Origin: Bacillota bacterium | Lineage (GTDB): Bacteria > Bacillota > Sulfobacillia > Sulfobacillales > JAIMBI01 | Direction of reading: 5' to 3' | DNA: 64,000 nt | Assembly: GCA_021846565.1 (NCBI GenBank) | Contig: JAJZWS010000011.1 | Coordinates: forward strand, 4,797-68,796 | Translations under genes and position numbers: made by a program | The notes under the pieces: generated by a model | What the model was told of the DNA's origin: nothing | Database searches by the model: none | What the model saw: only the letters and a program-made list of their open reading frames with translations | Shown here: positions 10,240-63,303 of the stretch, one piece after another | How the letters are laid out: each line of letters begins with the position of its first letter | How positions within the stretch are numbered: position 1 is the first letter of the stretch

Positions 10240-10770
10240 TTGTTGGCCGTGAATCCGATGTGGTGGGCACAAGCCCCGCCCGGGGGGAGATTGCCTGGCG
10301 GGCGCCACCGTACGAGGGGGACGCGGACCGCACTGCACCTCGAGTGGCCGGCCATCAACGTGCGGGCCGCGTTGGCGTACGCGGTTCGCTACGCCGGCGG
10401 GGTGGCCGACGCTCTGGCGGACATGAATCAGAGTGCCTCGGATCTGGCGCGGCAGCCGCCCGGCCGATATGTGTTCACCGTGGACGTCCGTGACGAAGCC
10501 CCACAGCGGCTCGACCATAGCCCGGCGGCTCGGCGAGCACGTGTCCGGCAGTGGCGAGGGCGCTCTCGGTGTCCATTGCGGTCCCCGGCCGGGAGCGCCG
10601 GACGACCTGCCGCTGAAGGAACCCGCCTCCGAGGGCCGCGGGCTGGTGACGGGTGACCTCCGAACCATCCCGCCGCTGCTGCGGCTGTGGGCCGAAGCCG
10701 GTCGGGCGCACGCGGGCGTTATGCTTGCCGACCGATGGACCATTCCCCCCAGCGACACCGGCGTCGGGCC
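10240..10770 (+). pseudogene. Possible decayed DUF433-like / DUF5615 (PIN-like) two-gene module
   Basis: No intact ORF. Across three successive frames the translations give RGTRTAL..EWPAINVRAALAYAVRYA (DUF433-like tail) and then GAPDDLPLKEPASEGRGLVTGDLRTIPPLLRLWAEAGRAHAGVMLA (DUF5615-like GA.De..L..A..EgR.LVT.D..F..L....HAGvi). Family assignment is from memory of consensus patterns only. Confidence 0.3.
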
Positions 10771-10905
10771 GTGCGCTCGCCAGGCTTGTCGTCGACACCA
10801 GTCAGGTGGATTGGACCAACCGCTGCGATTACCGGCATCGCGTCCGCTGATAGCTTTCGTTTCCCTTTCTTCCCCGCGGGCGTGGCGTGCGGTTGGCAAC
10901 CCCGG

Positions 10906-39452: not shown

Positions 39453-41465
39453 CTACTCACTGGACCCCATCGCCATGGCGGCCGGCAGCGGGGTGGCGCG
39501 CATGCCCACCGCCGCGGCCAGCAGCTCCGTCACGTCGGTCACCCGCAGCCGATCATCCACCCCCAGCGCGGTGGCGGCCGCATGAAACATTGACACGTCC
39601 TTGGGACAGGCCACCACGAAGTGGGTAATGCCCGGGAGCGCCAACGCCTCGCGGATGCGCTGGTTGGCGGGACGCTCCACGATGCCGGTCTCATCCATCC
39701 AAATGCGGCCACCCCCTGCACCGCAGCAAAAGCTTTGCTCCCCATGCCGCGGCATTTCTCTGAGGTCCACCCCCAGCGCGCGCAGCAGCTCGCGCGGCGC
39801 TTCGGTGATGTGGTTCCATCGCCCCAGGTAGCACGGGTCATGATACGTGGCGCGAATCGGCACGGGCGTGACAGGCAGGCGGCCCTCCTGAATGAGGGCC
39901 AGAAATGCCTCCGTGTAGTGGAACACGGGCTTGTCGAACCCGAACTTCCGGTATTCATTCTTGAGGGCGTTCAGGGAGTGTGGATCGGTGGTGAACACCC
40001 GCTGGAAGGTGGCCTTCTCCAGGATCTTCAGGTTTTTCTGGGCCAGTGTTTCAAACAGGCCGTACTCCCCAATGCGCAGCGCGTCGTTGCCGGAGTTCAC
40101 CTCCCCCTCGTACAGGATCCCAAAGTCCACGCCAGCCCGATGCAGCAGCTCGCCCACCAGCGGGGTCATTTCGCGGGCACGGGGGTCTAACGCGGCAAAG
40201 TCCCCCACGAACCAGAGCCAGTCCACCGGTTCCTTGCGGGCGTCCTTGATGGGGAACTCCAGTCCCTTGGCCCACTCGGGACGCTTGCGCGCCGGTTGGC
40301 CAAACGAGTTGCCCTGGCGCTCCCAAGCCACCAGCACCTTCTGCGCCGCCGGATCCACGTCGCCGTCTTCGAGGAGCGCCGCACGGAGTCCGGCAATCTT
40401 GGGCACGTGCTCAATGAACACCGGACACGCCTTCTGGCAGGCACCGCACGTAGTGCAGGCCCACAGGGCTTCGCGGGACACGGCGCCACCCGCGAGCGGC
40501 GGAGCGTCGGCCGCCGGCCGCCCCCAGTCGCTCACCAGCCGGTCTCGCAGGTCCAGGATGACCATCTTGGGCGAAAGCGGCTGACCGGCGGCATTGGCGG
40601 GACATACGTCCTGGCAGCGCCCGCACTCCGTGCAGGTGAAAAGGTCCAGCACGTCCTTCCAGCGCATGTCATCGAACGAGCGGATGGCCATCGTCTCTTC
40701 AGGGGGCGACTCCACCAGCTCCCCGATGGGACCGAGCTTGCGAAAGAAGATGTTGGGCACGGCCAGCAGAATGTGAAAATGCTTGGAGTACGGGAGATAC
40801 GCCAAAAACGCGAACACCATCCCGATGTCCATCAGGTAGCCCACGGTGTAGCCCACCATCGCGCCCGTGGGCGTGGTCCAACCGAGGGCCCGCCACAGGT
40901 GGTACAAGCCGTTGCCAAGAAACTCGCTCTTAAGAGACGGGTCCGTCACATGGAAGAATGACGCCGCCACCACGGGGTAGAACGACTCATGCACAACGAT
41001 GCCCACCACGATGATCGCAATGAGCACCAAAATCATGTAAGCATCCCGCTCGTCAGAGCCATGGAAGCGGGCCGGCCGCAGCACGGCCCGATTGTACACG
41101 GCCATCAGCACGCCCACCAGCACCAGTGCCACCCACACATCGACCGCTAGGCTGAGCCACGGCCCGATGCCAAATCCCGGCCGAAACACCTGGCCGATGG
41201 TGCCCACGATGTCCAGCAGCAGCACAACGAATCCGCTGAAAATAAAGTAATGCAGGATGCCGGAGAAGGGGATGCGGACCATGCGGCGATGGCCAAACAC
41301 CTGGGTTCCCACCGAGAGGAGCCGCTCGCCGATCCGGTCCCACCGCACGACGGGCCGAGTCCGACGCATGACGTTCCAGATGGCCCGGCCCCGCACTCCA
41401 AAAACCCCGACGCTGGCCAGGGCCACCACGATGGTGGCGGCCACGAGCACGGTCCGCAGTGTCAT
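39453..41465 (-). CDS. Membrane-bound Fe-S oxidoreductase (EtfD/Emo-like ETF:menaquinone oxidoreductase; HdrD-like CCG domains)
   Basis: 670 aa. About 6 N-terminal TM helices, CTECGRCQDVCP and CTTCGACQKACP clusters, and C-terminal CCG domains (SFCCGAGGG). Immediately downstream of etfBA. Confidence 0.8.
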   Translation of the reverse strand: MTLRTVLVAATIVVALASVGVFGVRGRAIWNVMRRTRPVVRWDRIGERLLSVGTQVFGHRRMVRIPFSGILHYFIFSGFVVLLLDIVGTIGQVFRPGFGIGPWLSLAVDVWVALVLVGVLMAVYNRAVLRPARFHGSDERDAYMILVLIAIIVVGIVVHESFYPVVAASFFHVTDPSLKSEFLGNGLYHLWRALGWTTPTGAMVGYTVGYLMDIGMVFAFLAYLPYSKHFHILLAVPNIFFRKLGPIGELVESPPEETMAIRSFDDMRWKDVLDLFTCTECGRCQDVCPANAAGQPLSPKMVILDLRDRLVSDWGRPAADAPPLAGGAVSREALWACTTCGACQKACPVFIEHVPKIAGLRAALLEDGDVDPAAQKVLVAWERQGNSFGQPARKRPEWAKGLEFPIKDARKEPVDWLWFVGDFAALDPRAREMTPLVGELLHRAGVDFGILYEGEVNSGNDALRIGEYGLFETLAQKNLKILEKATFQRVFTTDPHSLNALKNEYRKFGFDKPVFHYTEAFLALIQEGRLPVTPVPIRATYHDPCYLGRWNHITEAPRELLRALGVDLREMPRHGEQSFCCGAGGGRIWMDETGIVERPANQRIREALALPGITHFVVACPKDVSMFHAAATALGVDDRLRVTDVTELLAAAVGMRATPLPAAMAMGSSE

Positions 41466-41466
41466 G

Positions 41467-42417
41467 CTAACCCGCCTCCCCGAGAAGCTCCGTCAAGAGC
41501 GGCATCAGTTCCAAGATGTCGCAGGTAGCGCCGTAGTGGGCCACCTCGAAGATAGGGGCCGCCGGATCGCTGTTGACCGCGACGATAATCTCGCTGTCTT
41601 TCATCCCCTGCAGGTGTTCGGGCGCCCCACTGATGCCCAGCGCCAGATAGAGCTTGGGCTTCACGGTCTGCCCCGACTTGCCCACCTGCCGCGCCCGGGG
41701 CAGCCAGCCCGCGTCGACCACGGGTCGCGAGCAGCTCACCACCGCCCCCAGCGCCTCCGCCAGCTCATCGGCCAGCTCCAGGTTGTCCGGGTCCTGGATG
41801 CCACGGCCCACACTCACCAGCACATCGGCCCGCGTGATGTCCACGTCCCCGGTTTCCGGCTCAATGGTCCGCACCAGTTCCATCGCGGATTCGGGCGCCA
41901 CCGCCACCTCGCGTACCGGGGTGCCGCCGGCCACCGCATCGTCCGCCGGCCAGGAGCCAGGCAGGACCGTCAGCACGGATCCCTCCGGCACCGCCACCTC
42001 CGCCACCAGCTTGCCCGCATACACCTGGCTGGTTGCGGTGAACTCCCCGCCTTCGACCGCTGTGAGGCTGGTCACATACGCCACCATGGGGCGGCCCTCG
42101 GCCGCCGCCGTAGCCGCGCCCAGGTCCATGCCCATGGTGGTATTGGCCAGCAGCACCAGGCCTGCCGACGTTTCGCGCACCATCTGGCGCAGCGCCGCCT
42201 CCGCCAGGGTGGGCACGTAGGGGTCGGCTCCCACCACCAGCACGGCGTCATCGGCGCCCGACGCCGCCAGGGCGCTTCGGGCCGCCTCGCCAAATCCCAG
42301 GGCCACGACCCGCGTCGACCGCGCTTGCGCCAGCTGGCGCGCGCGGGTTAACAGCTCCCCAGTCGCTGGGCTCATGGCATCGTTCTGCAACTCGACCACG
42401 ACGATAATCGGTCCCAT
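41467..42417 (-). CDS. etfA: Electron transfer flavoprotein alpha subunit
   Basis: 316 aa. C-terminal FAD-binding block KLYLALGISGAPEHLQGMKDSEIIVAVNSD. Confidence 0.92.
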   Translation of the reverse strand: MGPIIVVVELQNDAMSPATGELLTRARQLAQARSTRVVALGFGEAARSALAASGADDAVLVVGADPYVPTLAEAALRQMVRETSAGLVLLANTTMGMDLGAATAAAEGRPMVAYVTSLTAVEGGEFTATSQVYAGKLVAEVAVPEGSVLTVLPGSWPADDAVAGGTPVREVAVAPESAMELVRTIEPETGDVDITRADVLVSVGRGIQDPDNLELADELAEALGAVVSCSRPVVDAGWLPRARQVGKSGQTVKPKLYLALGISGAPEHLQGMKDSEIIVAVNSDPAAPIFEVAHYGATCDILELMPLLTELLGEAG

Positions 42418-42421
42418 GTCA

Positions 42422-43189
42422 TCAGCTCCTTAAGTGCTGTTCATCCAGAAGGGCCACGAGCGCCGCCGCCACCTCGGCCGCATCCCCTTCCCACATCGTG
42501 GCGTGTCCCTGCGCCTCGGGCCGGTAGAGCCGCTGCACGGCGAGCGTCGACTCCGCCGAAGGCGCACCGGCCTCCACCTCCTCCAGCGTTGCGGAGCGAG
42601 ACACCTGGCGAATGCGGGCGATGGGCACATAGCGGGGAGGTTTTTTCGCCGCCTGCACCCCCAGCACCAGGGGGGTGGCCGATCGAAACTCGGCCATGCG
42701 GCCGCCGGCATACTCCTGCACGAAGCTCACCGGGCCAGAACCCACTGCCACGTCGCGCACCACCGAGGCGTGCGGCCACCCCAGCATCCCCCCCAGCAAG
42801 CCGGCAATCTGCCCATCCAGGTCGTCCACAGCCTGGACGCCCGTCATGACCAGGTCGTACCCGGCGTCCGCCAGATAGTCCGCCAAGATGCGCGCTCGCT
42901 GTCGACCGGGCATTGTCCGGTCATAGTCGCCCACCAGCTTGACGGCGCGGTCGGCCCCTTTGGCCAGCGCAGCGTAAAGCATGTTGTCGATGTCACCGGT
43001 GTCCAGCGCCACCGCCGACACATGCGCCCCGGAGGCTTCTTTTAAGAGCAGCGCCTCTTCGAGGGCCTGGTCGTCCCACTCACTGGGCACATAGCTCAAG
43101 TCATCGACGGCCAACGCACGCCCCGATTCGTCCAGCTCCAACTCCTCCACCAGATCCGGGACATCCTTCACCAGCACGGCAATGCGCAC
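42422..43189 (-). CDS. etfB: Electron transfer flavoprotein beta subunit
   Basis: 255 aa. MRIAVLVKDVPD.. with ETF beta family pattern. Confidence 0.92.
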   Translation of the reverse strand: MRIAVLVKDVPDLVEELELDESGRALAVDDLSYVPSEWDDQALEEALLLKEASGAHVSAVALDTGDIDNMLYAALAKGADRAVKLVGDYDRTMPGRQRARILADYLADAGYDLVMTGVQAVDDLDGQIAGLLGGMLGWPHASVVRDVAVGSGPVSFVQEYAGGRMAEFRSATPLVLGVQAAKKPPRYVPIARIRQVSRSATLEEVEAGAPSAESTLAVQRLYRPEAQGHATMWEGDAAEVAAALVALLDEQHLRS

Positions 43190-43237
43190 CTCGAACCCTC
43201 CTCCTTGTCGCGTCGTCAGTTCTCGTTGCCCTTCAGT

Positions 43238-43750
43238 TCAGTGGCCCTGAGACGGCCATCGCTGGGCGGCCTGCTCCGCGACCTGCTGCACCATCTCCAC
43301 CTCCACCGGGGTAAAGGCGTCCCGTTCGGGTGCCAGCAGGACCAATACGGCCAGCACGCCCGGGCGCGTTACCGGCACGGCTACCGCTGACTGCGCCGCC
43401 GGATTGTCCAGGCGGTGCCCATGAAACATGCGCAGCAGCGGAACGATCTGTACCACGCGGTCCGCCGCGGCGGTGCCCACCAGGCCCTCATGCCATGGCA
43501 CGGTGAGCGCCACAGGGCCCCCCTGATGGGCCGCGAGCACCAGCCGAATGCCCGGCGGGTCCGGGGCGTACAGGCTGGCACTGACCAGAGACGGCCGCGC
43601 CTGCCACAAGACGGCACACACGCCCTGCAGGCGGCTGGACCATGGAGCCTCCTCCACGTCCAGCACTACCTGGGCCACCTCGACCACCTCGCGGACCGTA
43701 CTCCCGGGCCCTATGGCCAGGGTCGCCGCCACAACCCGGTCGGGCATCAA
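43238..43750 (-). CDS. Stand-alone GAF-domain protein embedded between the dsrE3-like gene and etfB
   Basis: 170 aa. GAF-like pattern (..SLYAPDPPGIRLVLAAHQG.. HEGLVGTAAADRVVQIV .. AVAVPVTRPGVLAVLVL). Start overlaps the DsrE3-like stop by 4 nt. Confidence 0.6.
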   Translation of the reverse strand: MMPDRVVAATLAIGPGSTVREVVEVAQVVLDVEEAPWSSRLQGVCAVLWQARPSLVSASLYAPDPPGIRLVLAAHQGGPVALTVPWHEGLVGTAAADRVVQIVPLLRMFHGHRLDNPAAQSAVAVPVTRPGVLAVLVLLAPERDAFTPVEVEMVQQVAEQAAQRWPSQGH

Positions 43751-44127
43751 AACGTGATGACGACGTCCGCCTCGGCCGCCATCTCGTTCAGTGCCGTGCC
43801 GCCCACCACGCCGGACACCTCAATCAAGTCGTCCAGGGTGCAGTCGTTCAGATCAAGGCTCGGGGCGCAGACGTAAAACTCCACGCCCGCCTCGCGGGCT
43901 TGATCCATGAAAAACTGCAGCGTGGATCCCTGCCCATACCCCTTGATGTAAAGCGATTCCGCTGCCCCTCGCTTGAGCAGGCTCGTGGCGGTGATGGTGA
44001 ACACCATCCGCGACTCCCCATCCATCAGCGCGGCGGTCGTGGCCAGAAAGAACGGGGAAGCCGACCTCTCCGGGGCTTCGACGCCCGTCGTGAGGATGTA
44101 GAGATACTTCTTGGTCTCGTCAGCCAT
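43747..44127 (-). CDS. DsrE/DsrF-family sulfur-relay protein (DsrE3-like)
   Basis: 126 aa. YLYILTTG..SPFFLATTAA.. and the putative active-site Cys in EFYVCAPSL. Confidence 0.8.
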   Translation of the reverse strand: MADETKKYLYILTTGVEAPERSASPFFLATTAALMDGESRMVFTITATSLLKRGAAESLYIKGYGQGSTLQFFMDQAREAGVEFYVCAPSLDLNDCTLDDLIEVSGVVGGTALNEMAAEADVVITF

Positions 44128-44183
44128 TGACTGCCTCCGTCCTATGGTTCATCGATTTTGCTCCCGTCCTGGTCCAATCCAGT

Positions 44184-44444
44184 TCACTTGGTCCGGCGGA
44201 TGCGAAACCGAAAGACCGAACCGTCCTGCTGGGACAGCAGGAGCTGGTGGCCGGTAGAGTTGGCAAACGCCTTGAAGTCGGCCATGGACCCTGGGTCCGT
44301 GCACTCCACCTCCACCACCTGACCCATCTCGACCCCCACGATTCCCTTCTTGGCCTTGATGACCGGCAACGGGCAGGCCAGCCCCTTGGCATCGATGCGG
44401 GCCGCGACCTCTACGGTTTGAACCTCTGCTTGCATCTCATCCAT
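44184..44444 (-). CDS. tusA: TusA-family sulfur carrier
   Basis: 86 aa. DAKGLACPLPVIKAKK (CPxP motif). Confidence 0.88.
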   Translation of the reverse strand: MDEMQAEVQTVEVAARIDAKGLACPLPVIKAKKGIVGVEMGQVVEVECTDPGSMADFKAFANSTGHQLLLSQQDGSVFRFRIRRTK

Positions 44445-44499
44445 CGCGATCAGCTCCCTTCTTGTGGAAACGGTTCATGCGACCGGTGATGCCCGGTCG

Positions 44500-45618
44500 T
44501 CAGGGTCCCGCGCGTGCGCCTCCCGCCGCGCGGTGGGGCTCGAGGACCCCTGTGGGATCGATGGCGACCGCCTGAGCCCAGGCGCGCCCGACATCGGCTG
44601 CCGTGACGCCCGGCACGCTGATGGTCGCCCAGGCGCGCTCCAGCCGCGGAAGATACGCCTCCGGCAACATGGGCGAACCCACCACCGCCTCGGCCACCCG
44701 GGCCAAGCCGTCGCGCGGCTCCACCAGGAAATCGCCCGCCAACAGCACATCGTCCACTCGGCCGTCGCACTCGCGCACGATGACCCGCACCAAGCCCCCC
44801 GGCGCCTTGGCGACCCCCTCGTACAGGCGCACCCCCTCCCGGATCTTGACGCCTGCCTGCACCCACCCCTCGGTGGACCCGTACGCATACACAAACGCCG
44901 GGTCGAACAGGAGCTCCGCATAGTGGCGGGTGGCCGCCTCTTCCGCGGTCGTCAGGACCCCGCTGTGCACGGGCTCGCCTAAGCGCTCCCCGAACGCGTC
45001 CACCAAGAGGGCCACGGCCTCGGGGCGGGACGGCATGGCGCTCCCCAGCTGCGCCCGCATCGTCGTCATGTAGTCGCGGAGGCTGCTCTGCATTTTGTCG
45101 CGGAACTTCTCCGAGGGCACTGCCAGCACCCGGGTCATGGTGTCCACGTCAAAGTCGAACATCAGGCTGCCCACGATGGCCAGGGCCCCTTCTAGCGTGA
45201 CGGCACCCGTCCCGCCGATCTTCTGAGCCCCGACGACAATGTCGTTGACGGGCCGGTGCTCGGCCGCGATGCCCATCCGGCGGTACGCATCCACCGGTGC
45301 TCCGAGGCATCGGTCGTACACCGCTTGGACGGGTTCGCTCCCTCGCGGCAGGATCAGGTGCCAAAACACTTGGTCGTGGTCCAACAGCACGGCACCTCCG
45401 CCCACCATGCGGCGGGCCACCGGAATGTCGTGCGCGGCGCAGTAGTCCCGATTGACCTCCCGGCTCGCCACCTGATGGTAGCCCACGCACACATACGGCC
45501 CGTCCGGGCTGACCGTGATGAGGGTCGGTTCATCGCCGGCCGCCATGGTGTGCGCCACCCCGTGATACACGGCCTGAGACAAGGGGCGCGACACCGTGCC
45601 GAGATCCACATGCCTCAT
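44500..45618 (-). CDS. Lipoate-protein ligase A-like enzyme (sLpl(AB)-type)
   Basis: 372 aa of the BPL/LplA/LipB family: GYHQ..REVN.., ARRMVGGGAVLLD, KIGGTGA. Adjacent to the GcvH-like genes. Confidence 0.85.
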   Translation of the reverse strand: MRHVDLGTVSRPLSQAVYHGVAHTMAAGDEPTLITVSPDGPYVCVGYHQVASREVNRDYCAAHDIPVARRMVGGGAVLLDHDQVFWHLILPRGSEPVQAVYDRCLGAPVDAYRRMGIAAEHRPVNDIVVGAQKIGGTGAVTLEGALAIVGSLMFDFDVDTMTRVLAVPSEKFRDKMQSSLRDYMTTMRAQLGSAMPSRPEAVALLVDAFGERLGEPVHSGVLTTAEEAATRHYAELLFDPAFVYAYGSTEGWVQAGVKIREGVRLYEGVAKAPGGLVRVIVRECDGRVDDVLLAGDFLVEPRDGLARVAEAVVGSPMLPEAYLPRLERAWATISVPGVTAADVGRAWAQAVAIDPTGVLEPHRAAGGARAGP

Positions 45619-45678
45619 GACGCGTTCCTCCTCGTGGTGACTGCCATCGTGGCTCCTCCGTTTCCCCGCCGCGCGGCA

Positions 45679-46140
45679 TCACGGAATGGGATCGGCGCAG
45701 CGCATGCACGTGAGGCCTTCTTCTTTGAGCTTGGCCCGATACGGGTCGACCGCGTCGGGTCCGTGCCGGAGCCCACTGGCCGCCCACGCCTCGCGACCCA
45801 GGTCGGGACGAAAGGTGAGCAGCCACCCCTCGCCATAGGGATCCCGATTCACCAGGGAGGGGTCCTCCAGCACCGCGGGATTGGCGTCCACCACCGAGCC
45901 GGGAAGCGGAGCGGGCACAGGACCCACCCACTTCCCCGACTCCACGGTGGCCACGCTCTGTCCCGCACGCACCGACTTGTTCGCCCGGACCCGCAGGTAC
46001 AGGAGCTTGCCCGCCCGCGTCTGCGCGGGGTCGGTCATCCCCAGCCGCACCGTGCCGTCGGGCCGGTCCTCCAGCCACACGTCCTGGTCGACGCGGTACC
46101 ACAGATGGTCCGGCAGTTCACAGGCAAACACGAAGGCCAT
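45679..46140 (-). CDS. lbpA: GcvH-like lipoate-binding protein (LbpA), copy 2, with a C-terminal CxxC tail
   Basis: Start MAFVFACELP with a GGAGGTGA RBS. Lipoyl-lysine motif VESGKWVGP. Tail ..KLKEEGLTCMRCADPIP. Confidence 0.8.
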   Translation of the reverse strand: MAFVFACELPDHLWYRVDQDVWLEDRPDGTVRLGMTDPAQTRAGKLLYLRVRANKSVRAGQSVATVESGKWVGPVPAPLPGSVVDANPAVLEDPSLVNRDPYGEGWLLTFRPDLGREAWAASGLRHGPDAVDPYRAKLKEEGLTCMRCADPIP

Positions 46141-46156
46141 ACCCTCACCTCCGTTT

Positions 46157-46630
46157 CTAGCTCGCGCAGTGGATCCCGTCCCGCTCCAACAGCTCGCGAT
46201 ACCGCGCGAGACCATCCGGCCCCCCTGCCAGTTCCTCGCGGTCCACGTCCCACGCGCTGGGTTTCACGCGGATGAGCCACCCGGCCCCGTAGGGATCGCG
46301 GTTCACCGTCTCGGGAGACGCTTTGAGCGCCTCATTCACGGCCACCACCTCGCCCGCCACGGGGGTGGGGATAGTGCCCACCCACTTACCCGACTCCAGG
46401 GTTCCGGCACTTTTCCCACGAGCCAGGGTTTTGCCCAGCCCTCGCAGGTTGACCATCACGATTTTGCCGGCCAGGTGCTGGGCCACATCGGTGAGACCCG
46501 CTTCCACCACGCCGTCGGCGTCCGGTCCGCGTACCCACACATGCTTTTCTGGCCAGTACAGCAAGTCGGCCGGTAATTGGCAACCATTCACTTGGTTCAC
46601 GTCGTGCCCTCCGTCCGCGGCTCCGCTCAT
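46157..46630 (-). CDS. lbpA: GcvH-like lipoate-binding protein (LbpA), copy 1, with a C-terminal Cys tail
   Basis: Start MSGAADGG with a GGGGGAGG RBS. Motif LESGKWVGT. Tail ..YRELLERDGIHCAS. Confidence 0.8.
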   Translation of the reverse strand: MSGAADGGHDVNQVNGCQLPADLLYWPEKHVWVRGPDADGVVEAGLTDVAQHLAGKIVMVNLRGLGKTLARGKSAGTLESGKWVGTIPTPVAGEVVAVNEALKASPETVNRDPYGAGWLIRVKPSAWDVDREELAGGPDGLARYRELLERDGIHCAS

Positions 46631-46670
46631 GACGTCCTCCCCCTCGGGTTCCTCTCGGATCAAGTTTGGG

Positions 46671-47939
46671 TCAGTCCACCAGGGCCATGGATTTGGCCAG
46701 CAACTCCGCAATGTCCATCACCTGAAGCCGGCCCGTGTTGCCCGTGGACTTCACGGCATCCTCAAACCGGGACACTTCGTACGGACAGGTGACGGCCAGC
46801 ACTTCGGCCCCGTACTCAATGGCTTCCAGCACCCGCTTCTCGGAGAGGCGCATGCTGGTGAACTCGGCGGTAAAGCTGTCCATCCACATGCCGCCGCCCC
46901 CGCCGCCACAACAGTACGCGTTTTCCCGGCACCGGCCCATCTCCACCAGCTCAAGGCCCGGAATAGCCTGCAAAAGCTGTCGCGGTGCCTCATATTCGCC
47001 GTTGTGGCGGCCCAGGTAGCAGGGGTCGTGGAACGTGACGCGCCAGGGCAGCTCCCGCCGAAACGCCATGTCGCCGATCCGCGGGGCCAGGAACTGCGTG
47101 TAGTGCCGGGTGGGCCACTCCCCGCCAAACTTCGGGTACTCATGCAGCAGCGCGTTGTACGCATGCGGGTCGGTGACCAGGACCTCGTTGAACATGTATT
47201 GGGACAGCGTTTTGATGTTGTGCTCCGCCAGCATCTCAAACAGCCCCGCCTCACCCGCCATGCGCTGCGAGTCCCCGGAGCACTTTTCTTCGCGACCCAG
47301 AATACCAAAATCTACGCCCAGCGCGTTCAGGATGCGGGCCAGCGCGACCGACGCCTCCTGGCCTCGGGGATGGTAGGCCGGATAGCACTCCACGAACCAC
47401 AGGACGTCCACCGGGTCGGGGTGTTGGCTCATGATGGGGACCGGAACGCCCGCCTGCTTCACCCAGTCGGCCCGCTTGCGCGCAGGCTCCCCCAGCGGAT
47501 TGCCATACCGCGCCGTATTTTCGAAGGCGGACAGCAGTTCCTGGGGCGCCTGGCCATCCGCCACTGCCTGCTCGCGCACGGCCGGCATGATTTGAATCAT
47601 GTTGACCTCTTTGGGACACACGCGCAGGCAATTGGAGCACGTGGTGCACAGCCACAGATCGGGGCTGTCCAGCAAAGGGGTGCCCAGCTGCGTGCGGCGA
47701 AACACCTTGCGCGGAGAGAAGTCGCCGACCGTGTCGACGGGGCACACCGCCGTGCACTTGCCGCACTGATAGCACCAGCCCAGCGACTCGGCGCCCGGGA
47801 TGGCGGTGACCTCGTCCAACACCGACAAGTCATAGCCCGTAATGGGGCGCGGTTCAAACATGCGGCTCCACTGCGGCGTGAGCGCCACGCCGTCCACCAT
47901 CACCGTCTCACGCTCGACGGCCTGCGCCTTCTCAGCCAC
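46671..47939 (-). CDS. Fused HdrC-like / HdrB-like Fe-S subunit (sHdrB3 type)
   Basis: 422 aa. N-half CYQCGKCTAVCP and CTTCSNCLRVCP. C-half has two CCG-type domains (EKCSGDS.., YCCGGGGG). Confidence 0.8.
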   Translation of the reverse strand: MAEKAQAVERETVMVDGVALTPQWSRMFEPRPITGYDLSVLDEVTAIPGAESLGWCYQCGKCTAVCPVDTVGDFSPRKVFRRTQLGTPLLDSPDLWLCTTCSNCLRVCPKEVNMIQIMPAVREQAVADGQAPQELLSAFENTARYGNPLGEPARKRADWVKQAGVPVPIMSQHPDPVDVLWFVECYPAYHPRGQEASVALARILNALGVDFGILGREEKCSGDSQRMAGEAGLFEMLAEHNIKTLSQYMFNEVLVTDPHAYNALLHEYPKFGGEWPTRHYTQFLAPRIGDMAFRRELPWRVTFHDPCYLGRHNGEYEAPRQLLQAIPGLELVEMGRCRENAYCCGGGGGGMWMDSFTAEFTSMRLSEKRVLEAIEYGAEVLAVTCPYEVSRFEDAVKSTGNTGRLQVMDIAELLAKSMALVD

Positions 47940-48639
47940 GCTCCATCGCCTCCCATCGGTTCACGCCCAACAACGTCTGCAGCACCACGGGGAACGGAGG
48001 AAACACGCGCGTGAATTCTTCGGTCAGCTTCCAGGCCGCCATGGTGAACATGTACACCGCGTATACGGCCCCGAGCGCCACCAGCGGCCGGTGCTCGTCC
48101 GACACGGCGGTCAGCCGGCGCGTGCTGTCCAACACCGAGCCCAGAAAGCGCACGTCCTGCCGAATCGCGCCGTAAGCCTCCACCAACCCCACGTCGCGAA
48201 GTCCCTCCATATCGCCGGTCACCAGCGGCAGGGCCCCGGTCCCGCCCTCCCGGCGGTACACCCATCGGCCCCACCACGGCCACTCCGGCGCATGAATGTT
48301 CAGCCAGTACGTGGCCCAGTCCAACAGCCAATCCGGCGTCGCCGGCCGCTCGGCGAGGTGAGCCACCAGCCCCTCCCCGTCGCCCGCCGCCGCCAACTCC
48401 CAGATGGGCTCCAACTCCGGCTGCCAGCGGATCCGGTCCGCCGGGTTAACCCGGCGCGACACCGGCGCCAGCGCCCACCGGGCCGCCCACCCAACAGCCT
48501 CTCGATGTACGCGGGCGGTGCGACGCTGCAGAGCGGCGTCGAGCGCGGGGAGCGCCGGCGGCTCCAGGAGCGGCTCCGCCTTGTCCAGGAACTCCTGGAC
48601 TGCGGCGCCATCCACCACCATCCCGCTCACCGGATTCAT
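47932..48639 (-). CDS. Conserved hypothetical protein in the sHdrH position
   Basis: 235 aa with no recognisable domain. Overlaps hdrA (4 nt) and the B3 gene (8 nt), as the 'hyp' gene does in shdr loci. Confidence 0.55.
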   Translation of the reverse strand: MNPVSGMVVDGAAVQEFLDKAEPLLEPPALPALDAALQRRTARVHREAVGWAARWALAPVSRRVNPADRIRWQPELEPIWELAAAGDGEGLVAHLAERPATPDWLLDWATYWLNIHAPEWPWWGRWVYRREGGTGALPLVTGDMEGLRDVGLVEAYGAIRQDVRFLGSVLDSTRRLTAVSDEHRPLVALGAVYAVYMFTMAAWKLTEEFTRVFPPFPVVLQTLLGVNRWEAMERG

Positions 48640-49697
48640 GCCGACTGGGCGACCAGGCGGCGGAGCAGGCTGACCGTGCGCATCGCCGCCGCTCCTCCCA
48701 TCGAGACCGTATCTTCCAGGTCTTTCGGGCCCGCCGCCGCGCCCGCGACAAACACCCCGGGCACAGGCGTGCTGACCGTGTCCAGCGGCTCGCCCACCGT
48801 GGCCAAAAAGCCATGCGGCTCCCGGGGGAGCTGGAAGATGCGCGCCATCTCAAGTGTTCCTGCAGACGGCTCCATGCCCACCGACAGCACCACTAAATCC
48901 ATCGGCACCTCCACGGGTCGGCCCATGGTGGTGTCCTCGCCCTTGATGAGCAACTGGTCTCCCTTCTTGATCACCTCGGTCACGATGCCGCGAATGTAGT
49001 TGACCTTGTGTTCCTCCTGCGCCTTCCAGTACAGCTGGTCCTCCCAGAACCCGTACATCCGCATGTCGATGTAGAAGATGAACACTTTGGCGTCCGGCAC
49101 CAAGTGCTTCACCTCGATGGACTGCTTCGACGCAATCCCGCAACACACTTTCGAGCAGTACTGGTTGCCGATGCGCCGGTCGCGCGATCCGACGCACTGG
49201 ATGAACGCAACCGAGCGGGGCGGGGCCCCAGTCGATGGACGCACAAACCGGCCTGTCTGCATCATGCGCTCGGCGTCGACCAGCGTGATGACGTCGTCGT
49301 ACTCGTAGTACCCATACATCTGGGTTTCGCGGCCCGGGTCAAAGTGCTGAAAGCCCGTGGCCACCACGACGGCACCGACGGCTTCCACGGACCGCGTGCC
49401 GTCATGCTCCAGCGTGACCTGAAAGTTCCCCGCCGCACCTTCGCTCGCCACCACCCGCGTCGTGGTGCGCACGTCGACCAGGGGATGGCCCTCCACCGCC
49501 CCCTTGACCTCCGCCATCAGCTCGCGCGTGGGCGCGAGATGCGGCGTCAGGGTGGCGTAGGACTCCCAGGGCGTTCCTCCCAGCGTATCCTTCGCCTCCA
49601 CCAAGATCACGGGTGTCCCCAGGTCCGCGATGCCCCGCGCGGCCTCCAGCCCGGCCGGTCCTCCACCCACCACCAGCACGCGATCCGCCGTCGCCAT
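48636..49697 (-). CDS. sHdrA-like FAD/Fe-S flavoprotein
   Basis: Start MATADRVLVVGGGPAGLEAA with an AAAGGAGG RBS. Cluster motif CVGSRDRRIGNQYCSKVCC. About 353 aa (short sHdrA type, not the methanogen HdrA). Confidence 0.88.
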   Translation of the reverse strand: MATADRVLVVGGGPAGLEAARGIADLGTPVILVEAKDTLGGTPWESYATLTPHLAPTRELMAEVKGAVEGHPLVDVRTTTRVVASEGAAGNFQVTLEHDGTRSVEAVGAVVVATGFQHFDPGRETQMYGYYEYDDVITLVDAERMMQTGRFVRPSTGAPPRSVAFIQCVGSRDRRIGNQYCSKVCCGIASKQSIEVKHLVPDAKVFIFYIDMRMYGFWEDQLYWKAQEEHKVNYIRGIVTEVIKKGDQLLIKGEDTTMGRPVEVPMDLVVLSVGMEPSAGTLEMARIFQLPREPHGFLATVGEPLDTVSTPVPGVFVAGAAAGPKDLEDTVSMGGAAAMRTVSLLRRLVAQSA

Positions 49698-49735
49698 AAC
49701 GCGCCTCCTTTGCCCCCTGGTGTCGTTCTGTCGGC

Positions 49736-50956
49736 TTAGAGCACAGACTCCCACGTGAGATAGTCCATCGTGCCCGCCTCGATTTTCTTGACGTCTTCCT
49801 GAAACTCGGCCCATGCCTGCTCCGCATCGATGCCCATCTTGGCCAGAAGCGGTCGATAGTCCGTGGAATGCCAGTGCAGCTGCGTGACGCGAAACGGGTG
49901 GGCCCCCATGGCCAGCGCCGCAAACTGCGACTCGGACATCACCGGCACCCCCACATTGCGTCCGTGTGCCTGAGCCGCAAACTGGCTCTTGTCCAGCGAC
50001 GTCACGCAGCCCGTGTCGTGGGTCAGCACCACGTCAGGATTGGCTTCTTCCTTCATGACCTCGATCTTGCGGAGTGTGGCAAAGGACCGTGTGAAGTCCC
50101 GCTGCACCAGGATGTGTCGGAACCCGAACCCGCAACAGTCATACCAAGTGGAGTAGTCCGCCACCTGCGCCCCCAGCGCCTGCACCACGCCGGTCACCAC
50201 CGCCGTGCGCTGTCCGCCATAAATTTCCGGGTCATAGATGGCATCGCCCGACTGCAGCTTGTAGTAGTGGCAGGCCGGGTGCACCGTCGACACGATCGGA
50301 CTTAAGTCGTGCACCACGCGCTCCTGCAACTGGTCGCGCACTGCGTACATCCACTCACTGTAGTGCACGATCTCCTCCGGGATGACGAAGGGGCGTCCCA
50401 GCCGCTCAATGATGCCCCGCACCTGGCGCCGCAGCGCGTGGTCGTGCACCAGCTCGTGGCGCACTTCTTTGTAGTGGCCGAAGCTGGTGCCGCAGTGGAT
50501 GAGCGGGAAGTACCCGGTTTCGTAAGCGGCGGCGAAGTTGCGCATCGCCACCGCGGCCTGCGCAGCCTGATTGGACGTGGCCGAGGCGTAGTAGTTCCAA
50601 GCGGTGCACGACGTTTGGTCGCGGGGGTCGAAGTAGTCATAGCCCAGCACGCGGTTCAGCCAAAAGATCGACGTCGAATACCCCGGAATGTGCCCGCACT
50701 GTCCGCAGCTCTTGTGGTGCCACGTCCGCTCGTACGGGATTTTCTTCATCCGCCCGTACTTGGTAGGCGCTTCATAGTACGGTTCGGGCACGCGCTGGAC
50801 AATCCACTCGCCCTCGCGCTCAAGCTGCAGCACCGCCTCGCGCAAGTCCTCTTCCGGAGCCTCCCCGGGGTCGGGGCGAAACGTCTTCGTGGTTTCCACC
50901 GAAGTGCCCCGCACCGGAACCGTCCGATCTGTCGTCTTGGTCGTCGACGTGGCCAT
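49736..50956 (-). CDS. sHdrB1-like CCG-domain subunit
   Basis: GGGAGGA lies 7 nt before ATG 50956 (the ORF track extends to 50983). CGQCGH.., CTAWNYY.. and YDCCGFGFRH are CCG-domain elements. Confidence 0.85.
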   Translation of the reverse strand: MATSTTKTTDRTVPVRGTSVETTKTFRPDPGEAPEEDLREAVLQLEREGEWIVQRVPEPYYEAPTKYGRMKKIPYERTWHHKSCGQCGHIPGYSTSIFWLNRVLGYDYFDPRDQTSCTAWNYYASATSNQAAQAAVAMRNFAAAYETGYFPLIHCGTSFGHYKEVRHELVHDHALRRQVRGIIERLGRPFVIPEEIVHYSEWMYAVRDQLQERVVHDLSPIVSTVHPACHYYKLQSGDAIYDPEIYGGQRTAVVTGVVQALGAQVADYSTWYDCCGFGFRHILVQRDFTRSFATLRKIEVMKEEANPDVVLTHDTGCVTSLDKSQFAAQAHGRNVGVPVMSESQFAALAMGAHPFRVTQLHWHSTDYRPLLAKMGIDAEQAWAEFQEDVKKIEAGTMDYLTWESVL

Positions 50957-50982
50957 GGTGAGATCCTCCCTTCGCGTCTTCA

Positions 50983-51675
50983 TCAGTCCGACACCGCGGC
51001 ATCAATGCCGCTGTCCTCCAGGGCGTCGTCCATGATTTCCTCCATGATGTCGTGGAGTCCCTCGTCCAGCTGGGCAATCATGTCCAGCGTGCCGGTCCAC
51101 TTCCAGATGGCGTACAGCTCCCGCATGGTCCGCTCTTCCACATCCCACGAGAGGGCCGTGGTGTGCATGGTCTCCGGCGGCAGCGCGCGGCGCCACACCG
51201 CGAGATGGTCGGCCACATCCTTCACCTGCGGGCCCCAGTCGGGGAAGGCGTCCTCCTGCAGCATGTCGGGCGACACCTGCGTGCCGGTGGTCATGATCTT
51301 GTAGATGATGCGGGTGTACCCCGCGAGCGCTTCTTTGGTCGTGCGGAGCCCGTTGTTGACCGCCACCTCGCGCATGATGGTGATAAGCCCGCCCGGGTTG
51401 TTCCCACGGGGACAGCGGAGGCACGAGAAGCACTGCGAGCAGTTCCATACGTCGTCGTTCATCTGCTCGTACACCAGATCCACGTCCTCGCGGGCCAGCG
51501 CCTGGGCAATCTTGCGGGGAGAGAAATCGTAGAAGCGGGCTGACGGGCAGGCCGCGACGCAGATCCCGCACTCGTAGCACCCATACAGATAGGTGTCAAA
51601 GCGCGCATCCTGCACAACCTCACGATAAAGGCGCGTCTTCTCTTCCGCCGGCACATCCGCGTAAGCCTTCTCCAT
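50983..51675 (-). CDS. sHdrC1-like 2x[4Fe-4S] subunit
   Basis: Start MEKAYADVPAEEK with a GGGGGGAG RBS. Clusters CYECGICVAACP and CSQCFSCLRCP. Confidence 0.85.
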   Translation of the reverse strand: MEKAYADVPAEEKTRLYREVVQDARFDTYLYGCYECGICVAACPSARFYDFSPRKIAQALAREDVDLVYEQMNDDVWNCSQCFSCLRCPRGNNPGGLITIMREVAVNNGLRTTKEALAGYTRIIYKIMTTGTQVSPDMLQEDAFPDWGPQVKDVADHLAVWRRALPPETMHTTALSWDVEERTMRELYAIWKWTGTLDMIAQLDEGLHDIMEEIMDDALEDSGIDAAVSD

Positions 51676-51740
51676 CGGCTGCTCCCCCCATCTGTCGAAA
51701 CAGGTCACGAAAACCGATAGAGCCCGCAGGATGGCGGGCT

Positions 51741-52268
51741 CTACACGAACAGCTGGATCTTGGCGTCGCGGGCGTAGTCCAGGAACGTGGCTGCCCCCAC
51801 CACGTCTTCCACTTCCGGAATCAGGTCCTCGCGCTTCATCCCCATCACGTCCATCGTCATTTGGCAGGCCACCATGTGGACGCCCACCTCATGTGCCGTG
51901 CCGACAAACTCCCGAATGGACATGACCTTCGCCTTGGCAAACTGGGTGCGCATCATCGTGGACACCATGCGCGTTCCCCCGGGCACCATGCCCGCCACCT
52001 TGGCCATCGACGGCATGCTGGGATTGCCCGCGATCGAGATGTCCAGCGAATCGATCTTGTGCCGGTTGATGATGTCGAGCCCCCAGAACGTGAAAAACAG
52101 CATGGAATCCATGTCCATGGCCGCCGCCGCGGTCGCCAGGACAAACGGTGGATAGGCCATGTCCAAAGATCCCTTGGAACAGACAATGGCCAGCCGATCT
52201 TGCTGCACCTCTGGTCCTCCTCTCGCCGTTGGGTCACCGTATACCAATACCCCCACGGGTATCACCAT
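51741..52268 (-). CDS. DsrE/DsrF-like family protein (DsrE2-like), first gene of the shdr string
   Basis: ATG 52268 with an AAGGTG RBS. LAIVCSKGSLDMAYPPFVLATAAAAMDMDSMLFFTFWGL is typical of DsrE-related 'peroxiredoxin-like' proteins in hdr loci. The upstream part of the 51741..52559 ORF looks non-coding. Confidence 0.72.
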   Translation of the reverse strand: MVIPVGVLVYGDPTARGGPEVQQDRLAIVCSKGSLDMAYPPFVLATAAAAMDMDSMLFFTFWGLDIINRHKIDSLDISIAGNPSMPSMAKVAGMVPGGTRMVSTMMRTQFAKAKVMSIREFVGTAHEVGVHMVACQMTMDVMGMKREDLIPEVEDVVGAATFLDYARDAKIQLFV

Positions 52269-52320
52269 CGGTTTACACCTTCGGTGAGGAGCGCGCAAGT
52301 CATTGACGCAATATTTTTTC

Positions 52321-52354
52321 AGACCAATGGACGCTCCGAGGGGTCCATTGGTCT
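52321..52354. promoter_or_regulatory. Perfect 12-bp inverted repeat AGACCAATGGAC-N10-GTCCATTGGTCT in the divergent intergenic region upstream of the shdr string
   Basis: Read directly. Sits 53-86 nt upstream of the dsrE2-like ATG and 87-120 nt upstream of ORF 52441. There is no U-tract on either strand, so it is not a terminator. Confidence 0.6.
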
Positions 52355-52440
52355 CGTCCGGTGGCTCAACGGCAGGCCGTGCTACGATGAAGAGGCGAGG
52401 CGCCGGACGAATTTCACCGAGAAGGAGGGCGAATACCCGT

Positions 52441-52791
52441 ATGGGTATAAAGACAAGCCAAACCATCCTGCTATCGCGCGCAGCGGAGCTGTTTCCGGGG
52501 CTGGCGGACATGCTGTCGCCGATCAACGAAGCGCTCCGGCGCATCAACATGGGCCGCATGGAGTTTTTGCCCTACGACCATCCCGTGGCGGGATATCAGG
52601 TGCATATGCGTGCCGAACTCACGCCGCAGGGCCCGGACCGCCCCCCGCAGGTGGGGCACTGGCAACTCGAAATCCAGCGGGACGACTCCCCGCACGTCCT
52701 GTATCTCCATGGCAAGACCGGTGCGGACGGCGAACTGGGTGAGCTCTGGTCCCCCCAGGACGCGCCACTCGCCAACGGGCCAGCCCAGTGA
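52441..52791 (+). CDS. Hypothetical 116-aa protein divergent from the shdr string
   Basis: AAGGAGGG lies 11 nt before ATG 52441. High third-position GC. No domain recognised. Confidence 0.5.
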   Translation: MGIKTSQTILLSRAAELFPGLADMLSPINEALRRINMGRMEFLPYDHPVAGYQVHMRAELTPQGPDRPPQVGHWQLEIQRDDSPHVLYLHGKTGADGELGELWSPQDAPLANGPAQ

Positions 52792-53147
52792 AAGGCGAGG
52801 AGGAACTGCGCACCGCCTACTGGGAGGATTGCCGCACCGACCCGCGCTTCCCGCTGTGGGTGATTTTTCGACGCGTGGGGCAATCGCCGACCGTCCAGGA
52901 CGGATTGCCCTACGTGCGCCCGGCTGGACCCGATCTGCCCAGCGTGCTCAAGCGTCTGGAGCAGTGGCCCCGTCTGTCCGAGCTTGCGCAGCACCTGGGC
53001 CTGTCCACTGACGACTGCCGTGCGGTGCTTTGGCATCTCATCTGGCGACTGGAACGCGGTGCGGCGGATCCGGCCTGGGTGGACTGGAACGCTCGCGTCG
53101 ACGCGGCGTGGGGTTCGGAGGGCGATCCGCCGCTTGGGTCCGAGTGA
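52788..53147 (+). CDS. Hypothetical 119-aa protein with a possible HTH (LSELAQHLGLSTDDCRAVLWHLIWRLE) and two Cys
   Basis: GTG start overlapping the upstream stop (GTGA). The helix-turn-helix-like stretch resembles ArsR/MarR-type recognition regions. Cys14 and Cys77 are the only cysteines. Confidence 0.45.
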   Translation: MKGEEELRTAYWEDCRTDPRFPLWVIFRRVGQSPTVQDGLPYVRPAGPDLPSVLKRLEQWPRLSELAQHLGLSTDDCRAVLWHLIWRLERGAADPAWVDWNARVDAAWGSEGDPPLGSE

Positions 53148-63278: not shown

Positions 63279-63303
63279 GCGGCCTCTCCCCGGGAGAGGC
63301 CGC
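63279..63303 (+). terminator. Intrinsic terminator hairpin after the YggT-like gene
   Basis: GCGGCCTCTCCCCGGGAGAGGCCGC (stem of 10-11 bp) followed by TGTTTCTGT. Confidence 0.6.

Follow-up and report, generated by a model that had tools for sequence, protein, structure and literature searches.

The DNA analysed here, called the window below, is a stretch of 64,000 nucleotides (64 kb) from a Bacillota bacterium of the Sulfobacillales (assembly GCA_021846565.1, contig JAJZWS010000011.1). It carries a cluster of type II shdr genes on the minus strand and, facing it across a shared intergenic region, two small open reading frames on the plus strand, ORF1 and ORF2. These two genes, the region that separates them from the cluster, and their counterparts in other genomes are the subject of this report. 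The genes of the locus are listed here.

39453-52208, minus strand: complete type II shdr cluster
51741-52208, minus strand: dsrE2-like sulfur-carrier gene, first gene of the type II shdr operon, 155 amino acids (aa)
52441-52791, plus strand: ORF1, ATG start, 116 aa; orphan alpha+beta protein (predicted beta-alpha-alpha-beta4), acidic
52788-53147, plus strand: ORF2, GTG start, 119 aa; predicted DUF433-like helix-turn-helix (HTH) core at residues ~40-90

The genes facing ORF1 and ORF2 were identified as a complete type II shdr cluster from their domain content and their order, which is dsrE2, shdrC1, shdrB1, shdrA, shdrH, shdrB3, two copies of lbpA, lplA, tusA, dsrE3, a GAF gene, etfB, etfA, emo and a GNAT gene. 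Type II systems are defined by shdrC1B1AH-B3 together with etfAB (and emo) in one syntenic cluster (PMC11094781), and this is the arrangement found in the window. Pfam and NCBIfam domain searches found no gene for an ArsR-type or other regulator within the cluster. The dsrE2 product matched Pfam DrsE_2 at 1.2e-45 and NCBIfam DsrE2 at 130.6 bits, under the cutoff of 210. Its gene most likely starts at GTG 52208, because this codon is preceded by GGAGG, because all relatives are called at 155 aa, and because frame-breaking indels occur among relatives in 52209-52268. The intergenic control region would therefore measure 232 bp (52209-52440), instead of the 172 bp that a preliminary description of this DNA had counted from an ATG at 52268. 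Extension of dsrE2 to that ATG was rejected on codon-position GC and on the indels among relatives, and the same two grounds led us to reject an extension of ORF1 to TTG 52303 (162 aa).

ORF1 and ORF2 overlap by GTGA, GAAGGAGGG lies 11 nt upstream of the ORF1 ATG, and the GC content by codon position was 0.72/0.44/0.79 in ORF1 and 0.74/0.53/0.78 in ORF2. The coordinates, the coupling of the 116- and 119-aa genes and their good ribosome-binding-site (RBS) context and high third-position GC had all been described correctly. In pairwise comparisons with orthologues, the ratio of nonsynonymous to synonymous change (dN/dS) was 0.09-0.37 for ORF1 and 0.12-0.27 for ORF2, with synonymous differences of 0.28-0.71, and these ratios indicate that both are real protein-coding genes under purifying selection.

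Products of ORF1 and ORF2

Neither ORF1 nor the window ORF2 gave a match in Pfam or NCBIfam (E ≤ 0.1), PADLOC or PDB sequences, in agreement with the earlier statement that neither protein has a recognisable domain. An AlphaFold2 (AF2) model of ORF1 was confident, with a predicted local distance difference test (pLDDT) score of 84.9 and a predicted TM-score of 0.76; it starts with one strand and a pair of helices, and a long loop leads on to a sheet of four strands. A Foldseek search of the PDB with this model found no matching fold (best E 0.27, TM ≤ 0.26). No Cys is conserved in the ORF1 family.

For ORF2, the family grew to an alignment (A5) of 53 sequences through a full profile search with HMMER and a repeat of the word search from a broader alignment. 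The members are acidic, Trp-rich proteins of ~115 aa, limited to Sulfobacillus/Thermaerobacter-like Bacillota and including those of Sulfobacillus thermosulfidooxidans, S. thermotolerans, S. harzensis, S. acidophilus, S. benefaciens and Thermaerobacter-like metagenome-assembled genomes (MAGs). They are annotated as 'hypothetical' throughout, save for several JGI entries named 'DUF433 family' and one UniRef 'DUF433 domain-containing protein'. Eighteen residues are invariant, half of them aromatic and none of them Cys, and the family has conserved extensions at both the N-terminus (ELRxxYWxDxR...FPLWVxF) and the C-terminus (WxxWNxRVDxAW).

The AF2 model of ORF2, built on five sequences, had a mean pLDDT of 57. 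Residues 50-95 reached 75-80, with helices at 50-58, 63-69 and 74-91, and the remainder was of low confidence. These helices include the HTH-like stretch pointed out in the preliminary description, which is borne out by the three-helix segment and by sub-threshold matches to DUF433 and HTH domains. Foldseek searches of the PDB with this low-confidence model returned weak matches that include homeodomains and MarR, NarL and Lrp-type proteins. Pfam DUF433 was the best sub-threshold match in 11 of the 53 members, the other recurrent weak matches being winged-helix/HTH domains; the best DUF433 match (protein P0013) had an E-value of 9e-4 and 19.5 bits against a cutoff of 23.6, and covered profile positions 3-53 of 56. 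Aligned by eye, ORF2 residues ~38-84 correspond to residues 42-88 of the DUF433 structure 2GA1, with the shared motif G-x-P-x-[IV]-R ... L ... E-L-[A] ... G-L-[ST]-x-[ED]-D ... A-x-W-[HY]. We term the predicted ORF2 core 'DUF433-like' and do not file the protein as a DUF433 member. Neither ORF1 nor ORF2 (E ≤ 0.1), nor any of the 53 family members (E ≤ 1), matched the ArsR/SmtB winged-helix domains HTH_5 and HTH_20. A PDB match to 8vd6 ('CAP repeat') and a 2951-aa protein (P0014), both with many weak stretches of which none was individually significant, were set aside.

The preliminary description had also given ORF2 exactly two Cys residues, at positions 14 and 77. The count and position 77 were right, and the first Cys is residue 15. 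Cys15 is replaced by Gly, Arg or Asn and Cys77 by Leu or Phe in homologues, even close orthologues, and no Cys is invariant among the 53 members, so that the two-Cys thiol sensor proposed on the strength of these residues has to be given up.

Linkage to type II shdr clusters and a CsoR-family partner

A word-indexed search of 5.8 billion proteins returned 4 clusters for ORF2 and 7 for ORF1, and a scan of 185,579 species genomes found the pair in three uncultured Bacillota MAGs. Loci other than the window are designated by L-numbers. The ORF2 family lay beside a type II shdr cluster or within an ORF1-ORF2-CsoR module in 13 of 14 informative contexts, and three architectures were seen. The first, that of the window and five species-level relatives, has ORF1-ORF2 and dsrE2-shdr transcribed divergently, with a far flank that differs between loci and holds MazG/RlmH genes (as in the window), an EAL-gene insertion or a 2-oxoglutarate dehydrogenase gene. 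The second, that of S. thermosulfidooxidans, S. thermotolerans and two MAGs, has a solitary ORF2 homologue on the 3' side of the type II cluster: lbpA-lbpA-lplA-tusA-dsrE3-GAF is directly followed by this gene, and a gene for a PrsW-type protease comes next. In the third (L026 and L027), dsrE2-shdr is divergent from an ORF1 homologue, which is followed by a glyoxalase gene (L026), an ORF2 homologue and a gene of the CsoR family. A scan of metagenomes added two short contigs, one with an ORF1-ORF2-CsoR operon (L023) and one with dsrE2 divergent from ORF1 ... ORF2 (L024). One lineage (L017-19) had an ORF2-CsoR pair alone, beside spo0A, with no shdr gene in the flanks available. ORF1 homologues of 47-90% identity precede the ORF2 homologues in five window-type lineages and in L023, L024, L026 and L027; those of L026 and L027, at 47-49% identity, occupy the same position as in the window.

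This linkage to shdr is the strongest result of the analysis, and it persists through inversion, through a switch from one end of the cluster to the opposite one and through the replacement of neighbouring genes. The preliminary description had suggested looking for the pair beside shdr in other genomes, with homologues at random places as the outcome that would count against it; the pair was found there, and the contexts were not random.

The constancy of context also bears on the idea that ORF1-ORF2 is a toxin-antitoxin-like selfish module, a DUF433-type antitoxin with a novel toxin, that sits beside shdr by chance. DUF433/COG2442 proteins are best known as VapB-type antitoxins (PMC3834315), and two small overlapping genes would suit such a module. 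However, modules of this kind have patchy, mobile contexts, unlike the 13 of 14 found here. There was no PIN or other toxin domain and no PADLOC match, ORF2 homologues exist without ORF1, and the gene order is reversed, the DUF433-like gene being second. We consider this origin extremely improbable.

In each of the four loci with a solitary ORF2 homologue (L020, L021, L022 and L025), a terminator-like hairpin lies between the GAF gene and the ORF2 homologue, and in L021 and L025 a TATAAT hexamer is found just upstream of the latter. The GAF gene encodes a free-standing GAF-domain protein of 150-180 aa that was present throughout the type II shdr clusters of Bacillota examined (window 43238-43750, minus strand; L020 7417-7869; L021 7434-7889; L025 9378-9833) and that directly precedes the ORF2 homologue in Sulfobacillus. 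It presumably resembles the GAF proteins of the free methionine-sulfoxide-reductase type. The PrsW-family membrane protease gene on the other side was found at L020 8527-9477, L021 8398-9351, L022 8498-9442 and L025 10430-11386. PrsW proteases cleave anti-sigma factors in Bacillus, and a functional link between PrsW and the ORF2 homologue is possible.

Genes of the CsoR family directly follow the ORF2 homologue at four loci.

L026 10366-10644: CsoR-family gene
L027 10383-10646: CsoR-family gene
L017 5319-5618: CsoR-family gene
L023 733-1002: CsoR-family gene

The products are true members of the family (Pfam 6e-21), with Geobacillus CsoR (4M1P) as the closest structure at 2e-13. By our own reading of the 4M1P alignment, they have two Cys at the X and Y ligand positions (Y being usually His) and Glu at Z (KSCQ...SACSVAE), a fingerprint that to our knowledge matches no characterised subgroup of the family (CsoR, CstR, RcnR, FrmR). 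Judged by these residues and by its place beside sulfur-oxidation genes, the dithiol CsoR-family protein would be a better candidate persulfide sensor than ORF2. In L017 and L026 the ORF2 homologue is translationally coupled to the CsoR-family gene.

Coupling of this kind is expected of interacting partners, and it is one of several observations that favour a non-regulatory role, in which ORF1 and ORF2 would be accessory proteins of sHdr (assembly, maturation, adaptors), or ORF2 would be an anti-repressor or partner of the CsoR-family protein that acts off DNA, the palindromes described below being bound by other factors. Both proteins are acidic, the acidity of ORF2 being the main reason for giving this explanation weight; the invariant residues of ORF2 are mostly aromatic; the Sulfobacillus gene follows the operon on the same strand; and ORF1 has a confident fold without resemblance to DNA-binding proteins. 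On the other side, the hairpins in L020, L021, L022 and L025 split the gene from the operon and -10-like hexamers precede it in L021 and L025. Divergent transcription, which is usual for local regulators, is found in the window and in six or more lineages. ORF2 has an HTH-like core, and no shdr gene is found in the available flanks of the L017 pair. An accessory role is a serious possibility, though clearly a minority one.

Among the surrounding genes, convergent MazG-like and RlmH genes lie 3' of ORF2 in the window and are followed by ABC transporter genes on the plus strand. In L001, ~970 bp between ORF2 and the 2-oxoglutarate dehydrogenase gene (10367-11336) are without a called gene and contain the short direct repeats GGATGAACGTGGATGAACGTGGATGAGG and GAGAAGGACGAGAAGGACGATGAAGAGGAG. 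Within the shdr cluster, the longest open reading frame for shdrA (48636-49814, minus strand, 392 aa) overlaps shdrB1 by 79 nt, and relatives are called at 353 aa; the true start of shdrA is probably ~117 nt downstream of the start of the longest frame.

Sequence elements of the divergent control region

The region between dsrE2 and ORF1 contains two palindromic boxes, an inverted repeat and candidate promoters for both directions. Elements without a strand are palindromes or blocks.

52247-52262: box A, ATACCC-CCAC-GGGTAT, perfect palindrome, 38 nt upstream of the dsrE2 start; candidate CsoR/CstR-type operator
52433-52448: box B, ATACCC-GTAT-GGGTAT, perfect palindrome, overlapping the ORF1 start codon (52441-52443)
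52321-52354: inverted repeat AGACCAATGGAC-N10-GTCCATTGGTCT, candidate protein-binding site between divergent promoters
52299-52320: block GTCATTGAC (9-bp palindrome) and A/T-rich run CGCAATATTTTTTC, conserved at 0.88 and 0.77 in alignment A2 (below)
52270-52298, minus strand: candidate shdr promoter, TTGCGC (52298-52293), 17 nt, TAAACC (52275-52270)
52320-52312, minus strand: alternative extended -10 for shdr, TGAAAAAAT
52380-52388, plus strand: candidate ORF1-ORF2 promoter with extended -10-like TGCTACGAT

Conservation was measured in an alignment of the control region from five lineages (A2) and is given as mean pairwise identity.

Block TACACCTTCG: 0.92
Block GCGCAAG with the 9-bp palindrome GyCATTGrC: 0.88
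Box B: 0.86
Left arm of the inverted repeat: 0.85
Box A: 0.81
Block TGCTAsGAT: 0.79
A/T-rich run: 0.77
Right arm of the inverted repeat: 0.57
Spacer of the inverted repeat: 0.55

The pattern is that of footprints, with conserved blocks separated by stretches at 0.37-0.58 identity. At a synonymous divergence (pS) of ~0.45, arms and boxes are conserved, whereas the spacer of the repeat and most unassigned stretches are not.

The two boxes, ATACCCCCACGGGTAT and ATACCCGTATGGGTAT, had been overlooked in the preliminary description. The pattern ATACCC-N4-GGGTAT has exactly two matches in the 64 kb at one mismatch or fewer, against 0.05 expected, and both lie in the control region. Box B is perfect in L010 and has 2 mismatches in L004, L007 and L001. 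In the distant locus L027 a related box, ATACCCATACGGGTGT, takes the position of box A before dsrE2, L026 has a weaker one, and the distance from box A to the dsrE2 start is kept at about 27-38 nt in the window, L026 and L027. Boxes of this form fit the typical pseudo-palindrome of the CsoR family, in which a C/G tract is flanked by TAC...GTA. The core of the operator of Streptococcus mitis CstR (cst) is ATATACCCTTATGGGGTATAT (PMC8643695). A third box-like site, at L001 10714-10729, is probably due to chance. Upstream of the ORF2 homologue in L025 (9885-9935), TATAAT is followed by ATATACCTATACCAGTGTGGGT, which shares TATACCnATACC...GGGT with an extended box A, GTATACCAATACCCCCACGGGTAT.

The boxes could instead be sites of ORF2 itself, which would then control its own operon through box B and shdr through box A, the repeat stretch being mainly core promoter or UP-like sequence or the site of an unrelated factor. 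VapB10 of Synechocystis, a COG2442/DUF433 protein, binds an inverted repeat at -88 to -59 of the promoter that drives its own gene and activates this promoter, and its partner VapC10 removes it from the DNA (PMC3834315). This site, TTTCCCT-N2-AGGGTAA, is the sole characterised one for DUF433 and, like the boxes, is a CCC...GGG palindrome with A/T flanks (PMC3834315). Every lineage with box A has an ORF2 homologue, while an adjacent csoR gene is not present in all of them; the place of box B over the ORF1 start would fit autoregulation; and in the MAG locus L025, where the ORF2 homologue has a promoter of its own, a TATACCTATACC...GGGT element lies behind the TATAAT of that promoter. However, the experimental precedent is a single one, ORF2 is acidic, the Sulfobacillus ORF2 promoters of L020, L021 and L022 are without such a box, and the boxes match a CsoR/CstR operator too. 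Direct binding of the boxes by ORF2 therefore seems unlikely to us.

Since both boxes lie immediately upstream of or over a start site and each could form a 6-bp stem with a tetraloop in the mRNA, they, the repeat or both might also work at the RNA level, as hairpins in the 5' untranslated regions of both units. With the ORF1 AUG sequestered by box B, and with box A placed just ahead of the dsrE2 RBS, they would control translation or mRNA stability, and the constant distance between box A and dsrE2 would be in keeping with this. A search of Rfam with the intergenic region found no family, with one meaningless sub-threshold match to a lncRNA. The variants GCACCC...GGGTAT and ATACCC...GGGTGT weaken the stem without compensation, changes in the 12-bp repeat are likewise non-compensatory, and a 6-bp stem with three A-U pairs would be weak, by estimate and not by computation, for an organism of hot habitats. 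RNA-level control through these hairpins is very improbable.

The central repeat was found exactly where the preliminary description had put it, as a perfect 12-N10-12 inverted repeat with no T-run after it. The window holds 3 perfect inverted repeats with arms of at least 12 and a spacer of at most 20, against 0.35 expected in Markov-1 simulations, and the exact 10-mer ACCAATGGAC occurs nowhere in the window except in the two arms. The other two, at 30712-30739 (GCTGGCCGCCAC-N4-GTGGCGGCCAGC) and 63279-63303 (GCGGCCTCTCCC-N1-GGGAGAGGCCGC), are GC-rich hairpins that are perhaps terminators or repeat elements. The 12-bp repeat is perfect in this genome alone. Relatives keep 7-10 of the 12 complementary positions, and because they show no compensatory changes the repeat fits a pair of protein half-sites, one strong and one drifting, better than an RNA stem. 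In L001, the most distant relative, the right arm is shifted by 17 bp.

From this repeat and the two Cys residues the preliminary description had derived its model, in which ORF2 is a thiol-sensing HTH repressor that binds the repeat and replaces an ArsR-type sHdrR/SoxR, with ORF1 as the sensor partner. Much of what it built on is sound: both the HTH-like segment and the repeat exist, the repeat is rare and has no second copy in the window, and the pair is linked to a shdr cluster that has no ArsR-type gene. Against it, Cys15 and Cys77 are unconserved, with no conserved Cys in the ORF2 members or the ORF1 family, ORF2 is acidic, and the repeat is perfect in this genome only. The model also leaves out the two CsoR-type boxes and the CsoR-family partner of the related loci, and we regard it as quite improbable.

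All promoter assignments are predictions. For shdr, the hexamers TTGCGC and TAAACC fall in the two best-conserved intergenic blocks, GCGCAAG plus palindrome (0.88) and TACACCTTCG (0.92), and a counterpart, TTGCAT-17-TATAAC, was read by eye at the corresponding place in L027. The candidate for ORF1-ORF2 has the form TGCTAsGAT in four lineages. Under any of the candidate promoters, each box would lie downstream of its promoter and the repeat between or over both. The 9-bp palindrome at 52299-52307 is GTCATTGAC in the window, GCCATTGGC in three relatives and GTCATTGGC in one; its two substitutions are symmetric, so that the palindrome is retained. This symmetry may point to a site for a dimer, in overlap with two -35-like hexamers, TTGCGC (minus) and TTGACG (plus), which stand back to back. 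A terminator-like hairpin found inside ORF2 (52840-52861) by a simple terminator scan was taken as chance.

A proposed regulatory module and its relation to known systems

We propose that ORF1-ORF2 forms a module dedicated to the type II sHdr cluster, and probably a regulatory one, in Sulfobacillus/Thermaerobacter-like Bacillota, and put the probability of this reading at about 0.5. On this proposal, 52209-52440 would be the shared control region of two divergent units, the shdr operon on the minus strand and the coupled ORF1-ORF2 operon on the plus strand, and would hold at least two kinds of operator. The boxes would be CsoR/CstR-type operators downstream of the predicted promoters, one ahead of the dsrE2 RBS and one across the ORF1 start codon, and a repressor bound to them would keep both units off until sulfane sulfur modifies it. 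In this genome such a repressor would have to be encoded outside the 64-kb window. The central repeat would be the site of a second factor, for which ORF2 is the obvious candidate by analogy with VapB10; ORF2 would be a divergent DUF433-like HTH protein and ORF1 an orphan-fold partner that modulates it. In the four related loci the module would be completed by the dithiol CsoR-family repressor, whose gene comes directly behind that of the ORF2 homologue. The sequence comparisons themselves show the two genes and how far they are conserved, the link with shdr, and the motifs with their conservation; from these we infer the promoters, the signal and all assignments of proteins to DNA sites. ORF2 is a good, as yet unproven, candidate for the missing regulator of the operon. 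The exact division of labour, with the boxes assigned to a CsoR-type sulfane-sulfur sensor, the repeat to ORF2 and modulation to ORF1, is held only tentatively.

Several observations weigh against a regulatory module of this kind. The ORF2 family is acidic throughout (isoelectric point 4.4-5.7, median 5.1, net charge -6), and its HTH segment is net negative, which is unusual for a DNA-binding surface and weakens the repressor reading. The relationship to DUF433 is sub-threshold and the window ORF2 itself has no DUF433 match; comparison of the family profile with the single 2GA1 segment by hhalign gave a probability of 1.8%, which is not significant, and Foldseek with the low-confidence ORF2 model gave nothing below E 1.8. 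As to the DNA, a simple sigma-70 promoter scan found no consensus promoter in the control region, the right arm of the repeat is weakly conserved as well as displaced in L001, and the box spacer is 4 nt, compared with 5 in the S. mitis operator. No ATACCC-type box was found ahead of the ORF2-csoR pair in L017 and L026, which encode the CsoR-like protein. Conversely, no CsoR-family gene was found in the window by tblastn or with the family hidden Markov model on six-frame stop-to-stop reading frames of at least 50 aa, so that the proposed box-binder is hypothetical for this genome; either the gene has another place in the genome, or it was lost in this lineage and a different factor reads the boxes. 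Finally, all the lineages are fairly closely related Bacillota, and part of the synteny reflects simple descent.

A more specific version would make ORF1, ORF2 and the non-canonical dithiol CsoR-family protein an undescribed three-component module governing type II sHdr in Bacillota. In it, ORF1 would be a ligand or protein sensor of new fold; ORF2, acidic and DUF433-like, would serve as an adaptor with control over the CsoR-type repressor or bind DNA in its own right; and the genome studied here would be derived, the repressor gene having gone from the locus with the operators kept. We consider this version doubtful. The earlier suggestion of an undescribed sensor/regulator couple survives in part: the pair is conserved, unannotated and linked to a shdr cluster that encodes no ArsR-type protein, but its thiol-sensor component does not survive the loss of the Cys residues.

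The regulation of sHdr has been worked out only for type I systems (sHdrR/SoxR in Hyphomicrobium). The literature searched says nothing about how type II shdr clusters are regulated in Bacillota, among them the bioleaching genus Sulfobacillus, and contains no accession number of an orthologue of ORF1 or ORF2; neighbouring genes in Sulfobacillus have been drawn as 'hypo' (PMC4378227). What is gained here is the definition of two protein families that had no name and of several conserved DNA sites, all attached to the type II cluster and linked with a CsoR-family protein whose Cys residues are unusually arranged. Among culturable hosts, ORF2 has an orthologue in S. thermosulfidooxidans (WP_020373185.1), next to the type II cluster, and another in S. 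thermotolerans (AUW93608.1). Should the module prove regulatory, shdr operons would have a second, independent way of sensing sulfane sulfur, and a DUF433-like domain would have its first cellular role outside toxin-antitoxin systems.

One of the closest parallels is the pair of ArsR-type, sulfane-sulfur-responsive repressors sHdrR and SoxR, described for the type I systems of Hyphomicrobium denitrificans (PMC12423496, PMC10451225, PMC11582611). As with ORF1 and ORF2, these are small candidate regulators beside shdr with a palindromic candidate operator in a divergent promoter region. However, ORF2 has neither an ArsR/HTH_5 domain nor a conserved Cys pair, and sHdrR and SoxR belong to type I systems of Pseudomonadota.

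DUF433/COG2442 proteins (PF04255; 2GA1; VapB10) share with ORF2 their small size, and their three-helix HTH-like core has a predicted counterpart in ORF2. The binding of VapB10 to its upstream inverted repeat is controlled by a co-transcribed partner (PMC3834315), and ORF2 has a co-encoded ORF1, but no PIN-like partner. ORF2 differs further in falling below the Pfam threshold for DUF433 and in its context, which is fixed beside shdr and not mobile.

The third parallel is with persulfide sensors of the CsoR family, CstR and TTHA1953, the latter of which regulates sox genes in Thermus (PMC10318464). The boxes of the window closely resemble the S. mitis CstR operator core, apart from the shorter spacer (PMC8643695). 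By our reading of the alignment, the family members encoded at the related loci would carry x-C-C-E, compared with x-C-H-C in CsoR or two Cys ~29 residues apart in CstR and TTHA1953. The elements of the locus, an HTH-like small protein, palindromic operators and a CsoR-family partner, are of known kinds; their combination and both protein families are undescribed.

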